Source of the DNA: Gammaproteobacteria bacterium
GTDB lineage: Bacteria; Pseudomonadota; Gammaproteobacteria; UBA4575
Length of the DNA stretch: 64,000 nt
Direction of reading: 5' to 3'
Assembly (NCBI GenBank): GCA_965222615.1
Contig: CBDCUI010000008.1
Coordinates: forward strand, 384,001-448,000
Position numbers and translations under genes: made by a program. The notes under the pieces were generated by a model, which saw nothing but the letters and a program-made list of their open reading frames with translations, was not told where the DNA came from and searched no databases. Positions 51,688 through 57,623 of this stretch are shown here, one piece after another (the stretch's first letter is position 1; every line of letters starts with the position of its first letter).

Positions 51688-52077
51688 ATGAGTGCAGGCG
51701 AAAAAATTCGAATAGACAAATGGCTATGGGCCGCACGATTTTTCAAGACGCGGGCATTAGCCTCAAATGCTGTAAATGGCGGTAAGGTGCATGCAAATGG
51801 GAAACGAGTTAAATCTTCGCGGTCGGTGTGTGTTGGAGATAAATTAGAAATTAGTCGTAGCCACTCCCATGTCACTGTAATGGTAAAAGCTTTAAGCGAA
51901 AAACGTGGCCCTGCAAAACAAGCGCAAATGCTTTATGAGGAAACTAGTGAAAGTATAGAGAAACGTGAGTTAAATGCTCAGCAAAGAAAATTGCTAAATG
52001 CGGGACTGCCACAAACAAAAACTAGACCGGATAAACGTCAAAGACGCCAATTACGCAAAGTAAGCGGTAAGCTGTAA
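51688..52077 (+). CDS. hslR: Ribosome-associated heat shock protein Hsp15
   Basis: RIDKWLWAARFFKTR, RGPA..AQ.LYEET and RPDKRQRRQL motifs. Confidence 0.95.
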   Translation: MSAGEKIRIDKWLWAARFFKTRALASNAVNGGKVHANGKRVKSSRSVCVGDKLEISRSHSHVTVMVKALSEKRGPAKQAQMLYEETSESIEKRELNAQQRKLLNAGLPQTKTRPDKRQRRQLRKVSGKL

Positions 52078-52348
52078 TAAAAATATAATCGATAATTCAT
52101 TTGTCACATAAGTAGTTAATAATAACCTACTAATCTTTAATTAAATTATTGCCGTAACTAAAGATATATTGATTATTTTTGTGTAATAAACTTCACTTGA
52201 CGCAAAGATGACGTTAAGAGCAATATGGAAAAAAACAAAAAGGTCGTGTTTCGATCAAGAAAACCATGTTTCAAATATGGTTATAAGTAAATTGTTCTGA
52301 ATGCGATAAGTTTTAGTATAAATACATTCAAAAAAACAAAGGCAGTCG

Positions 52349-52948
52349 GTGAATTTTGTGAGTTGGGTAAACAGTTCATTGCATATCAATAAACTTTTAT
52401 TTGCGTGGTTAATTTTTCTGTATGGTACATGCCTTTGTGCCGACTTCAGTGGTACGACTCAGTTCAAAGCCTATACAACTGAGTCTCTGAAACCTGGGTA
52501 CAAACTGTACACCGATAAGCAAGATCGATTCAGTGCAGCGCAACCGCTTGGATGGGATGTTAATTTTCCAAGTCCTCCCTCGGATGGAGTGATTTTCTCC
52601 ATACAACCCTCTACTGATAGCAATGAAAATGTTGCGGTAAACGTTTTGGTTACACCTCCAGCAACAAATATTATCGAAGTTGCAGAAGCGACTGAAAACT
52701 ACTTGATTAATCAATCTGGTGTTGAAAAATTTGAACTGAAAAATGATCAAGATATTTCGCTATCAGGAGCAATAGGTGTTGAGCGAAGCGTTACCTTTGA
52801 ATTAAATGGTATACCGCTCTATGTGCGTACTTTGTATTTGCAACATTCTGCATACACGTTTGCACTAAGTTTTACTACTGGGGCAGATAATGTTGATAAT
52901 ATGAATTCTACTTTTGAACACATAATTCGGAATTTCACAATCATGTAA
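52349..52948 (+). CDS. Secreted PsbP/Mog1/DcrB-like fold protein
   Basis: Hydrophobic N-terminal leader; Y...RFS...P.GW motif; C-terminal beta-strand pattern ending TFEHIIRNFTI. Confidence 0.6.
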   Translation: MNFVSWVNSSLHINKLLFAWLIFLYGTCLCADFSGTTQFKAYTTESLKPGYKLYTDKQDRFSAAQPLGWDVNFPSPPSDGVIFSIQPSTDSNENVAVNVLVTPPATNIIEVAEATENYLINQSGVEKFELKNDQDISLSGAIGVERSVTFELNGIPLYVRTLYLQHSAYTFALSFTTGADNVDNMNSTFEHIIRNFTIM

Positions 52949-52956
52949 TTTAGTTT

Positions 52957-53169
52957 ATGAATACTGGTTATATTATTGGTCGCATAGTTGGTTTATTTAT
53001 TTTTCCTTTAATAGTTATGGGAATAATAGGTTTATTTCAATATGTGCGAACTAAAGATAAACAGCTTGCTAAGCGAACCATGTTTTCATGGTGGTCAATA
53101 GGATTGGGTATTGTGTTGCTAGTACTTGGGGTAATTGGCCAGATGGCAAATAATGTTGGGGAATTGTAG
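52957..53169 (+). CDS. Small 2-TM membrane protein
   Basis: 70 aa with two hydrophobic helices; 8 bp after the previous gene. Confidence 0.7.
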   Translation: MNTGYIIGRIVGLFIFPLIVMGIIGLFQYVRTKDKQLAKRTMFSWWSIGLGIVLLVLGVIGQMANNVGEL

Positions 53170-53213
53170 AAAGCATTTTGAAAAATTTATTTTATTAAGA
53201 TTATACGAAGATT

Positions 53214-53702
53214 ATGAAGGTTGATTTTCTAGAATCGCAATCAAACGTTGGTTATCTGAATATGCCTATTCCTATGGAACGAGATAATCAAATTGCAGAA
53301 GTAGTTGGAGCAATAGATTCAGTTGAAGATTTTGCGCGAGTTAATTCGACGATTGAGAATCAACACGACAAGGTTTTGCGTGTATTCGCTGAAAGAATGG
53401 CGATGCGAGCAGTGCGGGAAAACAACCCATCCTATATTAAGCTAGGTTTTCTCGCAGTTGTACTTAGTTGTAACTCTTATGAAGAACGTGAAGCACAACT
53501 GATCCTACCATTGCTTTCTAGAGCAGCAGAGTTAATAGATCTCAATCCCGATTCAATTACTGAGGAGGTCATTAGTTTAGTAGACGGAGAGGCTCAGCAG
53601 TTTTTGCAGTCTTTTTTATCACGTAAGGACAAGTCTATTGAGTCAATGGGGTACTGTGAAAAAATGGATGATGATGGGTTCAAGTTTGTACGGCAGTGGT
53701 GA
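53214..53702 (+). CDS. Hypothetical acidic helical protein; candidate toxin immunity protein
   Basis: 162 aa, no signal peptide; FAERMA..AVR and SIESMGY...DDGFKFVRQW motifs; directly upstream of the toxin gene. Confidence 0.55.
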   Translation: MKVDFLESQSNVGYLNMPIPMERDNQIAEVVGAIDSVEDFARVNSTIENQHDKVLRVFAERMAMRAVRENNPSYIKLGFLAVVLSCNSYEEREAQLILPLLSRAAELIDLNPDSITEEVISLVDGEAQQFLQSFLSRKDKSIESMGYCEKMDDDGFKFVRQW

Positions 53703-53724
53703 TCAATCAATAGTCAACAAAAAA

Positions 53725-55353
53725 ATGATTTTAGTTAAAAGCAAACATCGAAACCTAGGCACCGTCAGCGTTGAGTATTCATTGGTGATGGCGATTACAC
53801 TTACAATCGTAATTGCTGCAGCTCAAGCGATGAATCCAAATATGGAGAGTTTCTTTGAGGCCGCTGCGACTAAAATAGAAAACTTTCTTGGTGGTGGTAG
53901 TAGCAATGTTAATTCTACTCCAGATTTAGATACAGAAACCTATGACTATGAAGTTAAAGCCGCCGATGCCAGGGCGCTAGAGCAACAAAGATTAGAAGCG
54001 GCTCAAGGTGGACAAGACACTGGTGGGGGTGGTGGATTCTGGAGTAAAGCTTGGGGGGCTACCAAACAAGTTGGTGGTTTTTTCAAAGGTGTTGGTGAAC
54101 AAGGTTGGGATACCGTAGTAGGTCTTGGAACACTTGCCTACGATGTACAGAGATTAACAGGGCCTACAGCACTTATATACGAAGTTTTCGATCCGGAAGG
54201 CCAGGCTGCTCTTAGGAATAAATACGCTCAGGTAGGGCAGGCAATTTGGAATAATCCTGGAGATGTAGCCTATGCCATTGTCGAACCTATTGTTACCGAC
54301 TGGAAAAATGGTAACTATGGTGAAGCCATCGGCCGTGGTACTTTTGAAGTGGCTACTGCCATATTTACGCCTACCAAACTCGGCAAAGCCGGAAAGATCG
54401 GTGATGCGGTCGAAGACATTGCCGGTGCCGCCAATGCCGTAGATAACGTTGTTACCAAGGCGGATGACATCAGTGATGCGGGACAGGTTGCGGGTAAAGT
54501 TGACGATGTAGGTAGGCTGAATGTCGATGATCTTTTAGGTAATCCAGATGACATTGTAGTGCTTGGTCGCCAGCCAGATACTGCAGTGGCTAAAGACTGG
54601 CCTGGTCATGTAATTTTAGATGTTCCGGCAGATCAATGGTCTATCGCACTAAATGATGCGTTTATCGAAGCTGCCATTAAACAACGTCGACGTATATACA
54701 TTGGAAGTCCAACTACTCGCCCAAATCTATACGATGATGTTGCTGAACGTCCTACAGTATTTGGTCGCGAGATGGAGCAATTACGCAACGCGGGTTATCG
54801 GCAAGTTGGCGATTATATGGAACCTCCAGATACTGGGGGTGTTGCATCTAGAATTGATAATTCTTTAACGGATGAAGCTTTACCTACTGATCCGCCCTAT
54901 AACCCACGAGAAACAAGAGACGCATTAGAAGAGCGATATGGTGCTGAAAATGTAGAATCTACTACTGTTCCAAATGCTAACGCCAAGAATGTAGAGCTTG
55001 CTGGTCAAAGACATCCTGAAACGGGGATTGTGTTTGATCAACGTGGTTTTCCAATATTTGATGATGTAGCAAAGTACGATACTCGTCTGTCAGCTGATGA
55101 GTTTTCTTCTGCAAGTTATAGAGGTCAAATGCGTATGGCTACTCGCGAGCTTCGTGATGCGATTGATAATGGACAAATTCCTGCTTCTCAGTTTACTAAT
55201 GTGCAGTTGAGAGCAATTCGAGCAGGGAAAGATAAAATTCCAGGCTATACTTGGCACCATCACCAAGATATTGGAAGAATGCAACTAGTGCCTGAAGATA
55301 TTCATCGTAGAACTGGTCATATAGGTGGAGAAAGGATGGCTCAAGGAAACTAA
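53725..55353 (+). CDS. Polymorphic toxin: N-terminal Flp/Tad prepilin-like segment, pre-toxin helical region, unknown toxin-like domain, C-terminal WHH (HNH/EndoVII) nuclease
   Basis: Start taken as the ATG at 53725 (542 aa). KSKHRNLG|TVSVEYSLVMAITLTIVIAAA; HPETGIVFDQRGFPIF...YTWHHHQDIGRMQLVPEDIHRRTGHIGG; SMI1/KNR4 gene immediately downstream. Confidence 0.85.
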   Translation: MILVKSKHRNLGTVSVEYSLVMAITLTIVIAAAQAMNPNMESFFEAAATKIENFLGGGSSNVNSTPDLDTETYDYEVKAADARALEQQRLEAAQGGQDTGGGGGFWSKAWGATKQVGGFFKGVGEQGWDTVVGLGTLAYDVQRLTGPTALIYEVFDPEGQAALRNKYAQVGQAIWNNPGDVAYAIVEPIVTDWKNGNYGEAIGRGTFEVATAIFTPTKLGKAGKIGDAVEDIAGAANAVDNVVTKADDISDAGQVAGKVDDVGRLNVDDLLGNPDDIVVLGRQPDTAVAKDWPGHVILDVPADQWSIALNDAFIEAAIKQRRRIYIGSPTTRPNLYDDVAERPTVFGREMEQLRNAGYRQVGDYMEPPDTGGVASRIDNSLTDEALPTDPPYNPRETRDALEERYGAENVESTTVPNANAKNVELAGQRHPETGIVFDQRGFPIFDDVAKYDTRLSADEFSSASYRGQMRMATRELRDAIDNGQIPASQFTNVQLRAIRAGKDKIPGYTWHHHQDIGRMQLVPEDIHRRTGHIGGERMAQGN

Positions 55354-55354
55354 A

Positions 55355-55828
55355 TTGCGTGACGATATAATTTGGGATTCATATTACGGTGAAGGAGATA
55401 TTGGTCTAGTTCAAGACTTTGAAAAGAGTATCAATCAAGTATTACCTACCGAGTATAAAAAAATTGTTAGTAAATACAATGGTGCAGTTCCTGAGCCGGA
55501 TGCACTTAAGTTTTACAGTCGCCTTGTAAAAAAAGAAGTGGTTATTGGTGTTGGGGTATTTCTAGCTTACGGCAATATTGAGTCACCATCTGAAACCATG
55601 GAATGGAGCTACACGAATCGACCAGAAAACTTTCCTAAGAATTTTATTGCGTTTTCTCTTGTTGGAAATGGTGACATGATTTGTTTTGATTATAATGACG
55701 TGAGCCAAAATCAAGAACCGAAAATTGTGATATGGCATCATGAAGCAAGTCAACCTGAAGAGCTCTTTTCACCATTAGCGGATAATTTTTCTAAATTTCT
55801 GGATGTGATATTTTTTGAGGAGGATTAA
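55355..55828 (+). CDS. SMI1/KNR4 (SUKH) family immunity protein
   Basis: FEKSINQVLPTEYKKIVSKYNGA, GNGDMICFDY and EPKIVIWHHE...LADNFSKFL motifs; TTG at 55355 follows the toxin stop (the ORF is open from the GTG at 55325). Confidence 0.88.
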   Translation: MRDDIIWDSYYGEGDIGLVQDFEKSINQVLPTEYKKIVSKYNGAVPEPDALKFYSRLVKKEVVIGVGVFLAYGNIESPSETMEWSYTNRPENFPKNFIAFSLVGNGDMICFDYNDVSQNQEPKIVIWHHEASQPEELFSPLADNFSKFLDVIFFEED

Positions 55829-56107
55829 TCGGGAACTTCGTATCCAAAGGTAAAAAAACTTATGCGCTTTTTAAAGTGTTCAATGGGCTGACTACAGATG
55901 GAAATCTCGCATGTTATGCGGCTGCACCGTTAATCAATGAGGATTTCGATCTAAGCTATTATTTTGAATTGTAGTAGCTTGGTAGGTTATATGTGTTAAC
56001 TAATATGGTAGTACTAGTAGCCAGACGAGCATTAATGTCGAAAGACATCTGAGATAATAGGTTTAGTAAACGTAAATTGAGAGGGTAGGGTCTAAAGACC
56101 AGTCAAT

Positions 56108-56941
56108 TTATTCAAGTATTTTAAATTGAATAACAGATTTTTTGCCATCTCTTACGGGTTCCCCCATACACATCACACCATCAGAGATAAGAGTTTGTTC
56201 GTTTTTAGACACATGAATTTTTTGACCGTTATTAAATTTTATATATGTGCCATTGTAGCTTTCATCTTGAAGCAGGAATTTGCCTTCTTTACGTATAATT
56301 TTTGCATGTGCTCTAGAGACATATTTGCCTTGTACGATAATGTCACAGCTTGGGTCTCTGCCTACGTGGAAAACATCTTGTTCCTCAGATAGTACGTGTT
56401 TGTCACCTTTAAAGGATAGTTCAATGGTGGCTTTATTTTTTTTCTCCTTCTCCTTCTCCTTCTCCTTCTCCTTCTCTATTTCTAGAGGTGGTAAATTTTC
56501 TTTAGCTATAGGTTCAGCATCCAGTTGTTCAGGTTGTTTGGTTTCGATGGCATTTTTATTGGCATTCGTTTGTTTTTCCTTAGCATCAGAACTATCAGTA
56601 TCATCTGTTTGAGTAAGAATCTGAGATTCTAGGTCTTTTATAGAAGCATCGATTTGAGACGCTGGGCCTTTTTCTTCCTGAAGTGCTTCTTCCAGTTCTT
56701 GCACCTTGGATTCACTAATATCTAAAGAGGGTTGTACATCACTTAAAGTTGGCGGTATAGGGCGCTTTGAGGACTTAGAATTTTCCCCTGCAGCTTTTTC
56801 TTGTTCTGTATCAGTTTTTGCGATGCGACGATCTACAAGTCTGCGACGATTTTTTGTAACAAGGACCCCGTCACTATCAATAAAAGGATAGGTGACTTTT
56901 CTGCCCCACTTGCGTCGTTCACTATTTCTACGTTCAGCCAT
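56108..56941 (-). CDS. FHA domain protein with N-terminal Arg-rich (ERR..DRR) motif and acidic linker
   Basis: VGRDPSCDI...VSRAHA...DESYNGTYI FHA signature. Confidence 0.85.
   Translation of the reverse strand: MAERRNSERRKWGRKVTYPFIDSDGVLVTKNRRRLVDRRIAKTDTEQEKAAGENSKSSKRPIPPTLSDVQPSLDISESKVQELEEALQEEKGPASQIDASIKDLESQILTQTDDTDSSDAKEKQTNANKNAIETKQPEQLDAEPIAKENLPPLEIEKEKEKEKEKEKKNKATIELSFKGDKHVLSEEQDVFHVGRDPSCDIIVQGKYVSRAHAKIIRKEGKFLLQDESYNGTYIKFNNGQKIHVSKNEQTLISDGVMCMGEPVRDGKKSVIQFKILE
56442..56476. repeat. Hexanucleotide tandem repeat (TTCTCC)5+, in frame, encoding an EK tract
   Basis: TTCTCC x5 plus TTCTC; protein IEKEKEKEKEKEKK. Confidence 0.85.
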
Positions 56942-57122: not shown

Positions 57123-57623
57123 CTAAGGACAGAAATAGTGGATAAAATCTTTCTCTACGTACTCGATTGGGGTGCCTAGGCTTACAATGCCACTACCATG
57201 TAAGGTTAATTTTTCACCCATTAAAAATATTTCACCTTCGTCGTTTTTTATATAAGTACCGTTTGTACTGTGATCGGTAACCGTAAATTCTTCATTATCG
57301 TATTCAAATCTTGCATGTTGGCGAGATGTATAGCGGTTTTGAAAGACTAGCTCACAATTTGAAGCTCGACCAACGATTACAGAAGGGGAATCAATTAATA
57401 ACTCACACACGTCATCTTTGTACCAAAGAAATAAGCGCGATTTTGTTGTATCACTTTTCTCGCCACTATGAATTTCTATATTATTAATCCTGCGATCAGG
57501 TATTCGACGCCTATCTTCTCTGACTAAGGTTTGCTCACTATCAAAAAAAGGAAAAGCTGGGCTGTGCATCTGTGCACGGCGATCGCCATGTGTCCTACGT
57601 TCGATTCTTACTTGTGAGCTCAT
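57123..57623 (-). CDS. FHA domain protein, paralog of the neighbouring gene
   Basis: VGRASNCEL...TSRQHA...DHSTNGTYI; N-terminal ERR..DRR...PFFDS...DRR..DRR. Confidence 0.85.
   Translation of the reverse strand: MSSQVRIERRTHGDRRAQMHSPAFPFFDSEQTLVREDRRRIPDRRINNIEIHSGEKSDTTKSRLFLWYKDDVCELLIDSPSVIVGRASNCELVFQNRYTSRQHARFEYDNEEFTVTDHSTNGTYIKNDEGEIFLMGEKLTLHGSGIVSLGTPIEYVEKDFIHYFCP

Follow-up and report, generated by a model that had tools for sequence, protein, structure and literature searches.

A polymorphic toxin of a gammaproteobacterium with a complete Flp pilin as its predicted trafficking module

We describe a toxin gene and its surroundings in a stretch of 64,000 nucleotides (the window) from a gammaproteobacterium of the UBA4575 lineage (GenBank assembly GCA_965222615.1, contig CBDCUI010000008.1, here C8, positions 384,001 to 448,000 of the forward strand); positions without a contig name are counted from the first letter of the window. 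The gene, at 53725 to 55353, encodes a protein that begins like an Flp pilin, the pilin of Tad pili, and ends in a predicted nuclease domain, and it is directly followed by a putative immunity gene. An earlier note, made from the letters of the window alone, had singled it out as a candidate pilus-delivered toxin. The parts of the protein, the immunity gene and the pilus locus discussed below are the following.

53725..55353, plus strand: Flp-fused polymorphic toxin, 542 amino acids plus stop (open reading frame, Pfam, homologs)
53725..53760, plus strand: leader peptide, residues 1-12 (MILVKSKHRNLG), basic, ending in Gly-1 (sequence; invariant G12; register of the PDB matches)
53761..53892, plus strand: Flp pilin module, residues 13-56, with TVSVEY, a hydrophobic helix and an amphipathic helix, ending at G56 (BLASTP, hhalign, AlphaFold2, PDB)
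53893..54039, plus strand: linker, residues 57-105, with Gly/Ser-rich ends and one predicted helix at 75-93 (sequence, AlphaFold2)
54040..54396, plus strand: helical pre-toxin domain, residues 106-224 (QVGGFFKGxGE ... EPIVTDWxxGxYGEAIGRG), not in Pfam (207 representatives at E <= 1e-3)
54547..54828, plus strand: domain X, residues 275-368, a second toxin-type module without a name (alignment to toxin C-termini; no Pfam family)
55030..55350, plus strand: Colicin-DNase/WHH (HNH/EndoVII) nuclease domain, residues 436-542 (Pfam; 8bd1_A)
55355..55828, plus strand: SUKH-1 (SMI1/KNR4) immunity gene (Pfam SMI1_KNR4, E 1e-18; SUKH_6, E 1.1e-17)
Contig C9, 122000-141900 (122-142 kb), of the same genome (G000): Tad-like locus L010 (profile scans)

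An uninterrupted frame of 542 codons runs from the ATG at 53725 to the stop codon at 55351-55353. The protein opens with MILVKSKHRNLG|TVSVEY and closes with ...YTWHHHQDIGRMQLVPEDIHRRTGHIGGERMAQGN, and the mature segment behind the leader MILVKSKHRNLG begins with TVSVEYSLVMAITLTIVIAAAQAM. Relative to the predicted cleavage point the translated frame has Gly at -1, Glu at +5 and Tyr at +6, just as the earlier note had read it. The same frame is open already from a TTG at 53638, and one database gene call (P0002, 561 residues) begins at 53668. We regard 53725 as the likelier start because the leaders of the three closest homologs are equally short; no Shine-Dalgarno sequence is visible before any of the three candidate starts.

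The C-terminal part matches two Pfam families above their cut-offs, namely Colicin-DNase (PF12639; residues 436-534, E 3.7e-21) and WHH (PF14414; residues 502-541, E 9e-16, 57.8 bits against a cut-off of 25.1, profile positions 2-42 of 43), and the letters WHHH stand at residues 510-513. Its nearest solved chain is that of an Rhs toxin (8bd1_A, E 2.9e-4). The SUKH gene can start with TTG at 55355, one base past the toxin stop and with AAGGAA 8 nt upstream; an alternative start, GTG at 55325, would overlap the toxin gene. By these matches, the C-terminus is a predicted DNase of the WHH/colicin type and the adjoining gene that of a predicted SUKH immunity protein. The WHH nuclease and the SMI1/KNR4-like gene 1 bp downstream had both been claimed from the letters, as had the lack of an RHS, PAAR, VENN or LXG module, and the Pfam scan of the toxin bears this out, listing none of the latter four families.

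At the other end of the protein, a basic leader, Gly at -1, Glu at +5, an aromatic residue at +6 and a hydrophobic helix are all present, as in Flp prepilins. The earlier note had claimed this signature, and the resemblance exceeds it, extending to the whole mature Flp module. The genome has an Flp of its own (P0182, on contig C9; Flp_Fap 33.9 bits against a cut-off of 32.2, E 2.6e-8). BLASTP aligns toxin residues 8-56 with residues 33-81 of this pilin, ungapped, with 26 of 49 residues identical and 76% positives (E 1e-18), and the alignment spans from four residues before the Gly through the last residue of the pilin. A comparison of seven toxins with the same pilin in hhalign gives a probability of 98.1% (E 8.7e-14, 50 columns), and P0045, a toxin from another source, is 40% identical to it over 45 residues. 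A hidden Markov model (HMM) built from 42 toxin N-termini was run on every stop-to-stop frame of the genome (26,620 in all). Its matches are the toxin (1.2e-12), then P0182 (2.2e-7) and then the adjoining second Flp-like gene (0.28), with nothing else below 0.8. When the toxin and its six nearest relatives are left out of the model, P0182 is still the best match among these frames (5.6e-4).

The solved structures point the same way. Of 177,635 distinct PDB sequences, none but the Tad pilins 8u1k_A (0.1) and 8u2b_A (0.55) is matched at E <= 10; toxin residues 15-52 fall on chain residues 3-40, and T13 therefore corresponds to residue 1 of the mature pilin. AlphaFold2 places helices at 13-36 and 38-55 of the module. 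G12 and E17 are invariant in the three alignments A1, A2 and A4, of which A1 was chosen by the motif, the independent count being the tally of hydrophobic 17-mers given below. Judging from these comparisons, residues 13-56 of the toxin share homology with the Flp pilin of this genome from one end to the other. Flp pilins themselves are 40-60 residues long and comprise no other domain (Sonani et al. 2023, PMC10710030; what is said of published work here and below refers to parts of the cited texts). The toxin has a module of 44 residues followed by ~480 more; it is an Flp fusion and not an Flp. The linker behind the module is variable in alignment A2, and the predicted local distance difference test (pLDDT) of the AlphaFold2 model is low at linker residues 63-68 and 99-103.

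Relatives were collected with the first 260 or 300 residues of the toxin, and 43 proteins together with the best 150 of 207 representatives make up a family of 180 distinct proteins including the toxin itself. Most members match it only at residues ~106-250. The pre-toxin domain is modelled as a helical bundle with a pLDDT of 80-94 over residues 120-210. The pilin motif was written as a regular expression (G-x4-E followed by 16 residues of which no more than one is charged or polar, inside the first 70 residues), which matches 45 of 181 entries, or 42 once the longer call of the toxin and two internal chance matches are taken away. Counted independently of the motif, an uncharged hydrophobic 17-mer starts within the first 80 residues of 36 of the 180 proteins; G-x4-E abuts on it in 32 of these, three have Q or another variant, and a single one (P0181) is Sec-like. 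A chance origin of the motif is excluded, because the same expression finds only 80 matches in the 1,538,221 residues of all genome frames, ~30 of which are real type IV pilins or pseudopilins, compared with 42 among the 180 family proteins.

The proteins with the motif carry very different toxins at their C-termini. The Pfam cargo of the 42 comprises PT-HINT (11 proteins), WHH (4), Colicin-DNase (4), Endonuclea_NS_2 (2) and EndoU (2), besides single cases of RNAse_A_bac, AHH, DddA-like, Tox-SHH, Ntox46, MafB19-deam, CdiA_C_tRNase and XOO_2897-deam; examples are P0003 with WHH, P0004 with a DddA-like deaminase, P0047 with a MafB19 deaminase and P0005 with a domain without a known family. At least 15 toxin families are represented, behind an N-terminal part that keeps G-1 and E+5. 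A shared N-terminal part with differing C-terminal toxins is a mark of polymorphic toxins, and the variation at the C-terminus that the earlier note had predicted for homologs is plainly seen. Below the threshold, Pfam also matches Flp_Fap in four of the 42 and DUF4244 in two. Among the other 138 members, Pfam was run on the 118 of up to 600 residues (the 20 longer ones being left out), and it matches Tox-PAAR-like in 21, WXG100 in 18, eCIS_core in 3 and PAAR_motif in 2. PAAR-like and WXG100 modules precede the same domain in these sister proteins, and the Flp module therefore occupies the trafficking slot. One pre-toxin domain appears to serve behind N-termini of three types, those of the type VI secretion system (T6SS), the type VII secretion system (T7SS) and Flp. 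Its glycine-rich hydrophobic helices might, speculatively, act on membranes.

A machine that could take up such a protein is encoded elsewhere in the genome. Locus L010 contains two Flp genes, CpaB, a secretin, one TadG-like and two TadE-like proteins, a PilB/GspE-like ATPase with an MshEN domain and one T2SSF protein; it also holds three FHA proteins, a Ser/Thr kinase, a pentapeptide-repeat protein and a thioredoxin-like protein. CpaB passes its equivalog model with 161.5 bits (cut-off 71), the secretin (E 1.7e-22) carries T2SS-T3SS_pil_N, Tad (PF13400) is matched at 4.9e-9 and TadE, below threshold, at 1.8e-4. The ATPase scores best as PilB/GspE-type, with 545.7 and 505.4 bits, both under the cut-offs. 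An Flp, CpaB/RcpC, a secretin and TadE/TadG-type pseudopilins, all marks of a Tad system, are found together in the genome. The sole A24 prepilin peptidase in the genome (PF01478, E <= 10) is a frame of 297 aa (C8:370057-370383) that lies 67 kb away from the toxin, the other match to this family (0.267) having an internal stop; we read the peptidase as PilD-like from its size. About 30 pilins or pseudopilins of the G|F(T/S)LIEL type are encoded on contigs C7, C8 and C9 in several clusters. With a single PilD-like peptidase in the genome, type IVa pili, type II secretion and the Flp-type proteins would all depend on it. No T6SS sheath gene (VipB) was found in the genome, which is 99.8% complete, and this agrees with a trafficking route other than the T6SS.

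The combination of toxin and pilus genes can be followed into other genomes. The N-terminal part of the toxin is present in one of the 56 genomes of the order, namely the one studied here, and RcpC/CpaB in eight of them; the other species of the genus has neither. Two toxins of Chloroflexota, one from a metagenome-assembled genome of Roseiflexus (L011) and one from the genome G343, have N-termini reading ...ERG|GEAVES... and ...ECG|AEAVEA..., followed by the same central domain, and the former ends in WHH. Flp-like genes, RcpC and an A24 peptidase are all present in both of their genomes. In a sample of 401 Chloroflexota genomes (four of them, G187, G392, G259 and G224, unpublished) the Flp-type toxin occurs in two and RcpC in 185. 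RcpC/CpaB and an A24 peptidase are present in all three genomes in which a Flp-type toxin was seen (G000, G056 and G343), which, set against base rates of 8 in 56 and 185 in 401 for RcpC, is suggestive only. A toxin profile (A6, positions 5-70) also matches small free-standing Flp pilins in Chloroflexota, and nine further loci in this phylum have the central domain behind N-termini that look, by eye, like WXG100. Loci of relatives numbered one in a scan of genome contigs and six in a scan of metagenomes, two of the latter being Flp-type. At one metagenomic locus (L024:1112-2670) a Flp-type toxin of the Roseiflexus kind is frameshifted between the N-terminal part and the central domain, and immunity-type genes (HEAT-repeat, SUFU and DUF4261) come after it.

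Taken together, we consider it probable that the gene encodes an antibacterial polymorphic toxin with its immunity gene, in which a complete Flp (type IVc/Tad) pilin acts as the trafficking module, and we infer delivery by a pilus. The toxin would be inserted in the inner membrane like a prepilin, cut after Gly12 by the only A24 peptidase of the genome, and taken up through its Flp helix by the Tad-like machine encoded on the other contig. In the solved Tad pilus the outer surface is formed by the pilin's C-terminal end (PMC10710030). Because this end sits on the filament surface, the cargo of ~480 residues would hang outside the filament on its Gly-rich linker, the toxin being most plausibly a subunit that is rare or sits at the tip; with the Gly/Ser-rich linker following directly on G56, such display is sterically plausible. 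On contact, the nuclease would reach a neighbour that lacks the SUKH protein. The PT-HINT domain of 11 of the 42 relatives could cut the toxin free, and its presence there fits an anchored N-terminal part from which the toxin is severed. A wider proposition, that Tad/Flp pili are a general and so far unrecognised route for polymorphic toxins in several phyla, parallel to the T6SS, the T7SS and the type V secretion system (T5SS) and with the toxin itself as a pilin subunit, we hold more tentatively, and give slightly less than even credence.

A number of results weigh against this reading. The toxin does not pass the gathering cut-off of the Flp/Fap pilin family (PF04964), and the comparison with Flp_Fap and TadE that the earlier note had proposed as a check turned out negative, with no Pfam match for residues 1-60 or 1-250 even at E <= 10; the only relevant Pfam line for residues 1-60 is a sub-threshold Class_IIIsignal (E 0.21), and NCBIfam yields no Flp or TadE match for the N-terminus. 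Genome-wide scans with Flp_Fap and TadE did not list the toxin locus, the relatives P0005, P0045, P0047 and P0048 reach 17.6-24.8 bits in Flp_Fap against the cut-off of 32.2, and the HMM built without the toxin's own clade did not list the toxin at E <= 10. The pre-toxin domain has no fold match in Foldseek, and its best hit in a VIA-wide search (Z 5.2) is to generic helices, the AlphaFold2 model used having an overall pLDDT of 65.6. The toxin lies on contig C8 and the Tad-like locus on contig C9, so the two are unlinked, and no Tad gene was found around three other Flp-type toxins, at L011 (6.2 kb), L024 (12 kb, scanned with Pfam) or L027 (4.8 kb, open reading frames listed only). L010 lacks a TadA/CpaF-type ATPase and the two platform proteins TadB and TadC; with a PilB/GspE-like ATPase and a single T2SSF protein its predicted machine is Tad-like but atypical. 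No TadV/CpaA-type peptidase was found in the genome with PF01478, the co-occurrence is based on three genomes of which two may be kin, expression evidence for the toxin was sought and none found, and there is no evident way for a DNase to cross the envelope of the target. The earlier note had expected a tad cluster with a prepilin peptidase in the genome; a Tad-like locus and an A24 gene are there, the peptidase is not of the TadV/CpaA type and the toxin is not linked to the locus. Its proposal that the toxin is processed as a pilin and delivered by a Tad/type IV pilus holds up in its sequence-level predictions and lacks the TadV/CpaA peptidase, the Tad linkage and the Pfam Flp match.

The atypical ATPase also bears on an explanation in which the Tad-like machine works as an exporter resembling the type II secretion system (T2SS): the Flp module would dock the toxin to a short pseudopilus, which pushes it through the secretin to be released or held at the surface. 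The best scores of the ATPase being of the PilB/GspE type (both under the cut-offs), together with the self-cleaving PT-HINT domain of the 11 relatives, which would fit a release of the toxin, speak for this, and a T2SS-like mode has also been weighed by the authors of the work on the Kil system of Myxococcus xanthus (PMC8460266, PMC12075869). We nevertheless hold it unlikely. The Flp is retained in full, down to the C-terminal helix that forms the surface, where a docking tag would need less, and it is not evident how a DNase set free in the medium would enter a target cell. We also know of no T2SS substrate that is itself a pilin fusion.

If the Flp segment were a mere membrane anchor or signal, independent of any Tad machine, the toxin would stay in the inner membrane or periplasm and reach competitors by lysis, by vesicles or by another route. 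The missing linkage to a Tad locus here and at the three other loci would then need no explanation, nor would the failure of the Pfam Flp_Fap and TadE models, and an A-x-A site (AQA|M) does stand behind the hydrophobic helix of the toxin. Such a site is present in the corresponding region of 16 of the 42 relatives and is not conserved, and the genuine Flp P0182 holds one as well (ANA|M). An anchor would hardly require G-1 and E+5, which are kept in 32 of the 36 helix-bearing family proteins as against one that is Sec-like, nor does it account for a likeness to the genome's own Flp that continues through a second, non-membrane helix to the last residue, in the very slot that PAAR-like and WXG100 trafficking modules occupy in sister proteins. 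We judge this explanation improbable. It is very improbable that the gene arose by chance recombination or is decaying, and has no function: its site is indeed a variable hot spot, 118 residues with a second toxin-type domain are inserted in frame, and a relative in a metagenome (L024) is frameshifted, but its 542 codons are open with a third-position G+C content like that of the genome (0.20-0.39), its nuclease and immunity domains score well above the cut-offs, and 42 proteins show this architecture, with a wide range of toxins.

The insertion just mentioned is seen in alignment A2 at residues 258-375, in comparison with the closest homolog (P0003, 79% identical). Within it, domain X aligns to the extreme C-terminus of seven proteins (E 6.6e-25 to 4.4e-5): P0146, which has RHS-type repeats by eye, P0170, P0181, the Flp-type P0116 and the WXG100-type P0109, P0040 and P0044. 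Because it is terminal in polymorphic toxins of several trafficking types, domain X is probably another, undescribed toxin domain. The toxin would then hold two toxin-type domains in tandem, with domain X retained in frame before the WHH domain. No Pfam family matches it. The searches for its identity and fold started at residue 286, without the conserved residues 275-285, so that their negative results are weak: only chance matches among PDB sequences, only the toxin itself in a word-based homolog search, and, with a model of pLDDT 69.7, nothing at E <= 1e-3 in Foldseek and a best Z of 4.2 in the VIA-wide search. An Atlas lead to an ADP-ribosyl cyclase (0.77) was under any useful score and was dropped. 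A predicted complex of domain X (from residue 286) with the 162-aa protein encoded upstream of the toxin scored 0.02.

The toxin and its immunity gene belong to an accessory island, whose other parts and flanks are the following.

52080..56100, no strand: accessory island of ~4 kb with five same-strand genes (52349..55828), missing in three relatives
51688..52077: hslR, left flank of the island
52349..52948, plus strand: island gene 1, a 199-aa PsbP/DcrB-like protein with a hydrophobic N-terminus (PsbP E 4.7e-5, 23.9 bits, cut-off 23.5; DcrB E 0.19)
52957..53169, plus strand: island gene 2, a 70-aa protein with two hydrophobic segments (sub-threshold Pfam/NCBIfam matches only)
53214..53702, plus strand: island gene 3, a 162-aa orphan directly upstream of the toxin (no family)
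56108..56941, minus strand: FHA-like gene, right flank of the island

In a DNA search of three relatives (G001, G005 and G007), all keep both flanks and nothing of the window between ~52080 and 56100; the sequence between the flanks amounts to ~200 bp in G005, ~800 bp in G007 and ~1.8 kb with other genes in G001. On a metagenome contig of a relative, too, 651 other letters stand between 52001 and 56190. The site between hslR and the FHA gene is an insertion hot spot. At the same site in a sister species (L035, G001:C1:1745400-1747900) lie a 236-aa open reading frame that looks, by eye, like a REP-associated tyrosine transposase, and a small lipoprotein-like open reading frame. The genes at 56108..56941 and 57123..57623 (both minus strand) have, by eye, FHA-like C-terminal domains behind Arg-rich N-termini; they are conserved in the relatives and are therefore not island genes. 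The 162-aa protein has no Pfam or NCBIfam family, Atlas scores below 0.9 and no homolog but itself among 45 candidates; it is an unproven candidate for a second immunity protein or helper. The G+C content of the toxin gene is 0.42-0.49 compared with 0.39 for the genome (the segment taken for domain X in this count being residues 292-400, not the final borders 275-368). With its genome-like third positions, the raised content is attributable to amino-acid composition, and a compositional sign of recent import was dropped.

Compared with known polymorphic toxins (Zhang et al. 2012, PMC3482391), the system shares the WHH/Colicin-DNase with an adjacent SUKH-1 gene, the swapped C-termini and the PT-HINT domain of relatives, and differs in having an Flp pilin as its predicted trafficking module and two toxin-type domains in tandem; the words pilin, pilus, Flp and prepilin have no occurrence in the first 300,000 of the 357,715 characters of that article. 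With the toxins of the T6SS PAAR-like (PF13665) and T7SS WXG100 types it has in common the pre-toxin domain at 106-224 and the variable C-termini, domain X included, but it possesses neither module, and no VipB sheath gene was found in its genome. In contrast to Tad pilins such as Caulobacter PilA (8u1k; PMC10710030), with which it shares G|xxxxEY and a mostly hydrophobic helix of ~45 residues, being 53% identical to a Pfam-passing Flp and matched in register to 8u1k and 8u2b, the toxin has ~480 further residues, lies outside a Tad locus and stays below the Pfam model.

A full-text search of the literature, figures and supplements aside, found a single sentence on fusions of Flp and toxin: ARC (CD38-like) polymorphic toxins are described as 'associated with ... 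Flp pilins' (J Biol Chem 2025, PMC12605009; preprint bioRxiv 10.1101/2025.07.23.666440). Flp pilins are named there among the N-terminal elements of polymorphic toxins, as found here, but the toxin domain is a different one, and the text, again leaving aside figure and supplements, contains no analysis of the Flp module or of delivery. The statement of the earlier note that the delivery route was not known to be characterised is therefore fair, with the reservation that the architecture had once been mentioned in print. The Kil system of M. xanthus is a Tad-like pilus that kills on contact with an unknown toxin (Seef et al. 2021, PMC8460266; Herrou et al. 2025, PMC12075869), and variable minor-pilin 'Tips' have been proposed to carry or recruit it. 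It resembles our case in its Tad-type genes and FHA-rich loci, L010 with its three FHA proteins and Ser/Thr kinase being likened to Kil by the abundance of FHA alone; it differs in that its toxin is unknown, whereas the toxin described here is covalently part of an Flp. Modular type IV pilins are known from Streptococcus sanguinis, where PilB has a vWA module and PilC a lectin module (cited in PMC12075869). There, too, a pilin N-terminus bears a functional C-terminal module, which is displayed by the filament, but those pilins are type IVa-like with adhesive modules, whereas ours is an Flp with a toxin.

What is new here is a polymorphic toxin with a pilin as its apparent trafficking module, from which we infer the delivery route. 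The analysis also defines two domains that are absent from Pfam, namely the pre-toxin domain of T6SS-, T7SS- and Flp-type toxins, and domain X. Polymorphic toxins are classed by their N-terminal module, and to our knowledge all of those modules that have been studied lead to a secretion machine, be it the T5SS, the T6SS, the T7SS, a phage-like particle or another. Tad pili are widespread and known mainly as adhesins. A complete Flp pilin in the trafficking slot, recurring with many different toxins, predicts a further route via Tad-type pili. If true, it could explain how Tad-like killing pili such as Kil intoxicate their prey, and a fusion of toxin and pilin offers a direct handle on this question through its cleavage by the peptidase, its location in the pilus and pilus-dependent killing. 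The finding suggests that some bacteria may arm their adhesive (Tad) pili with toxins.

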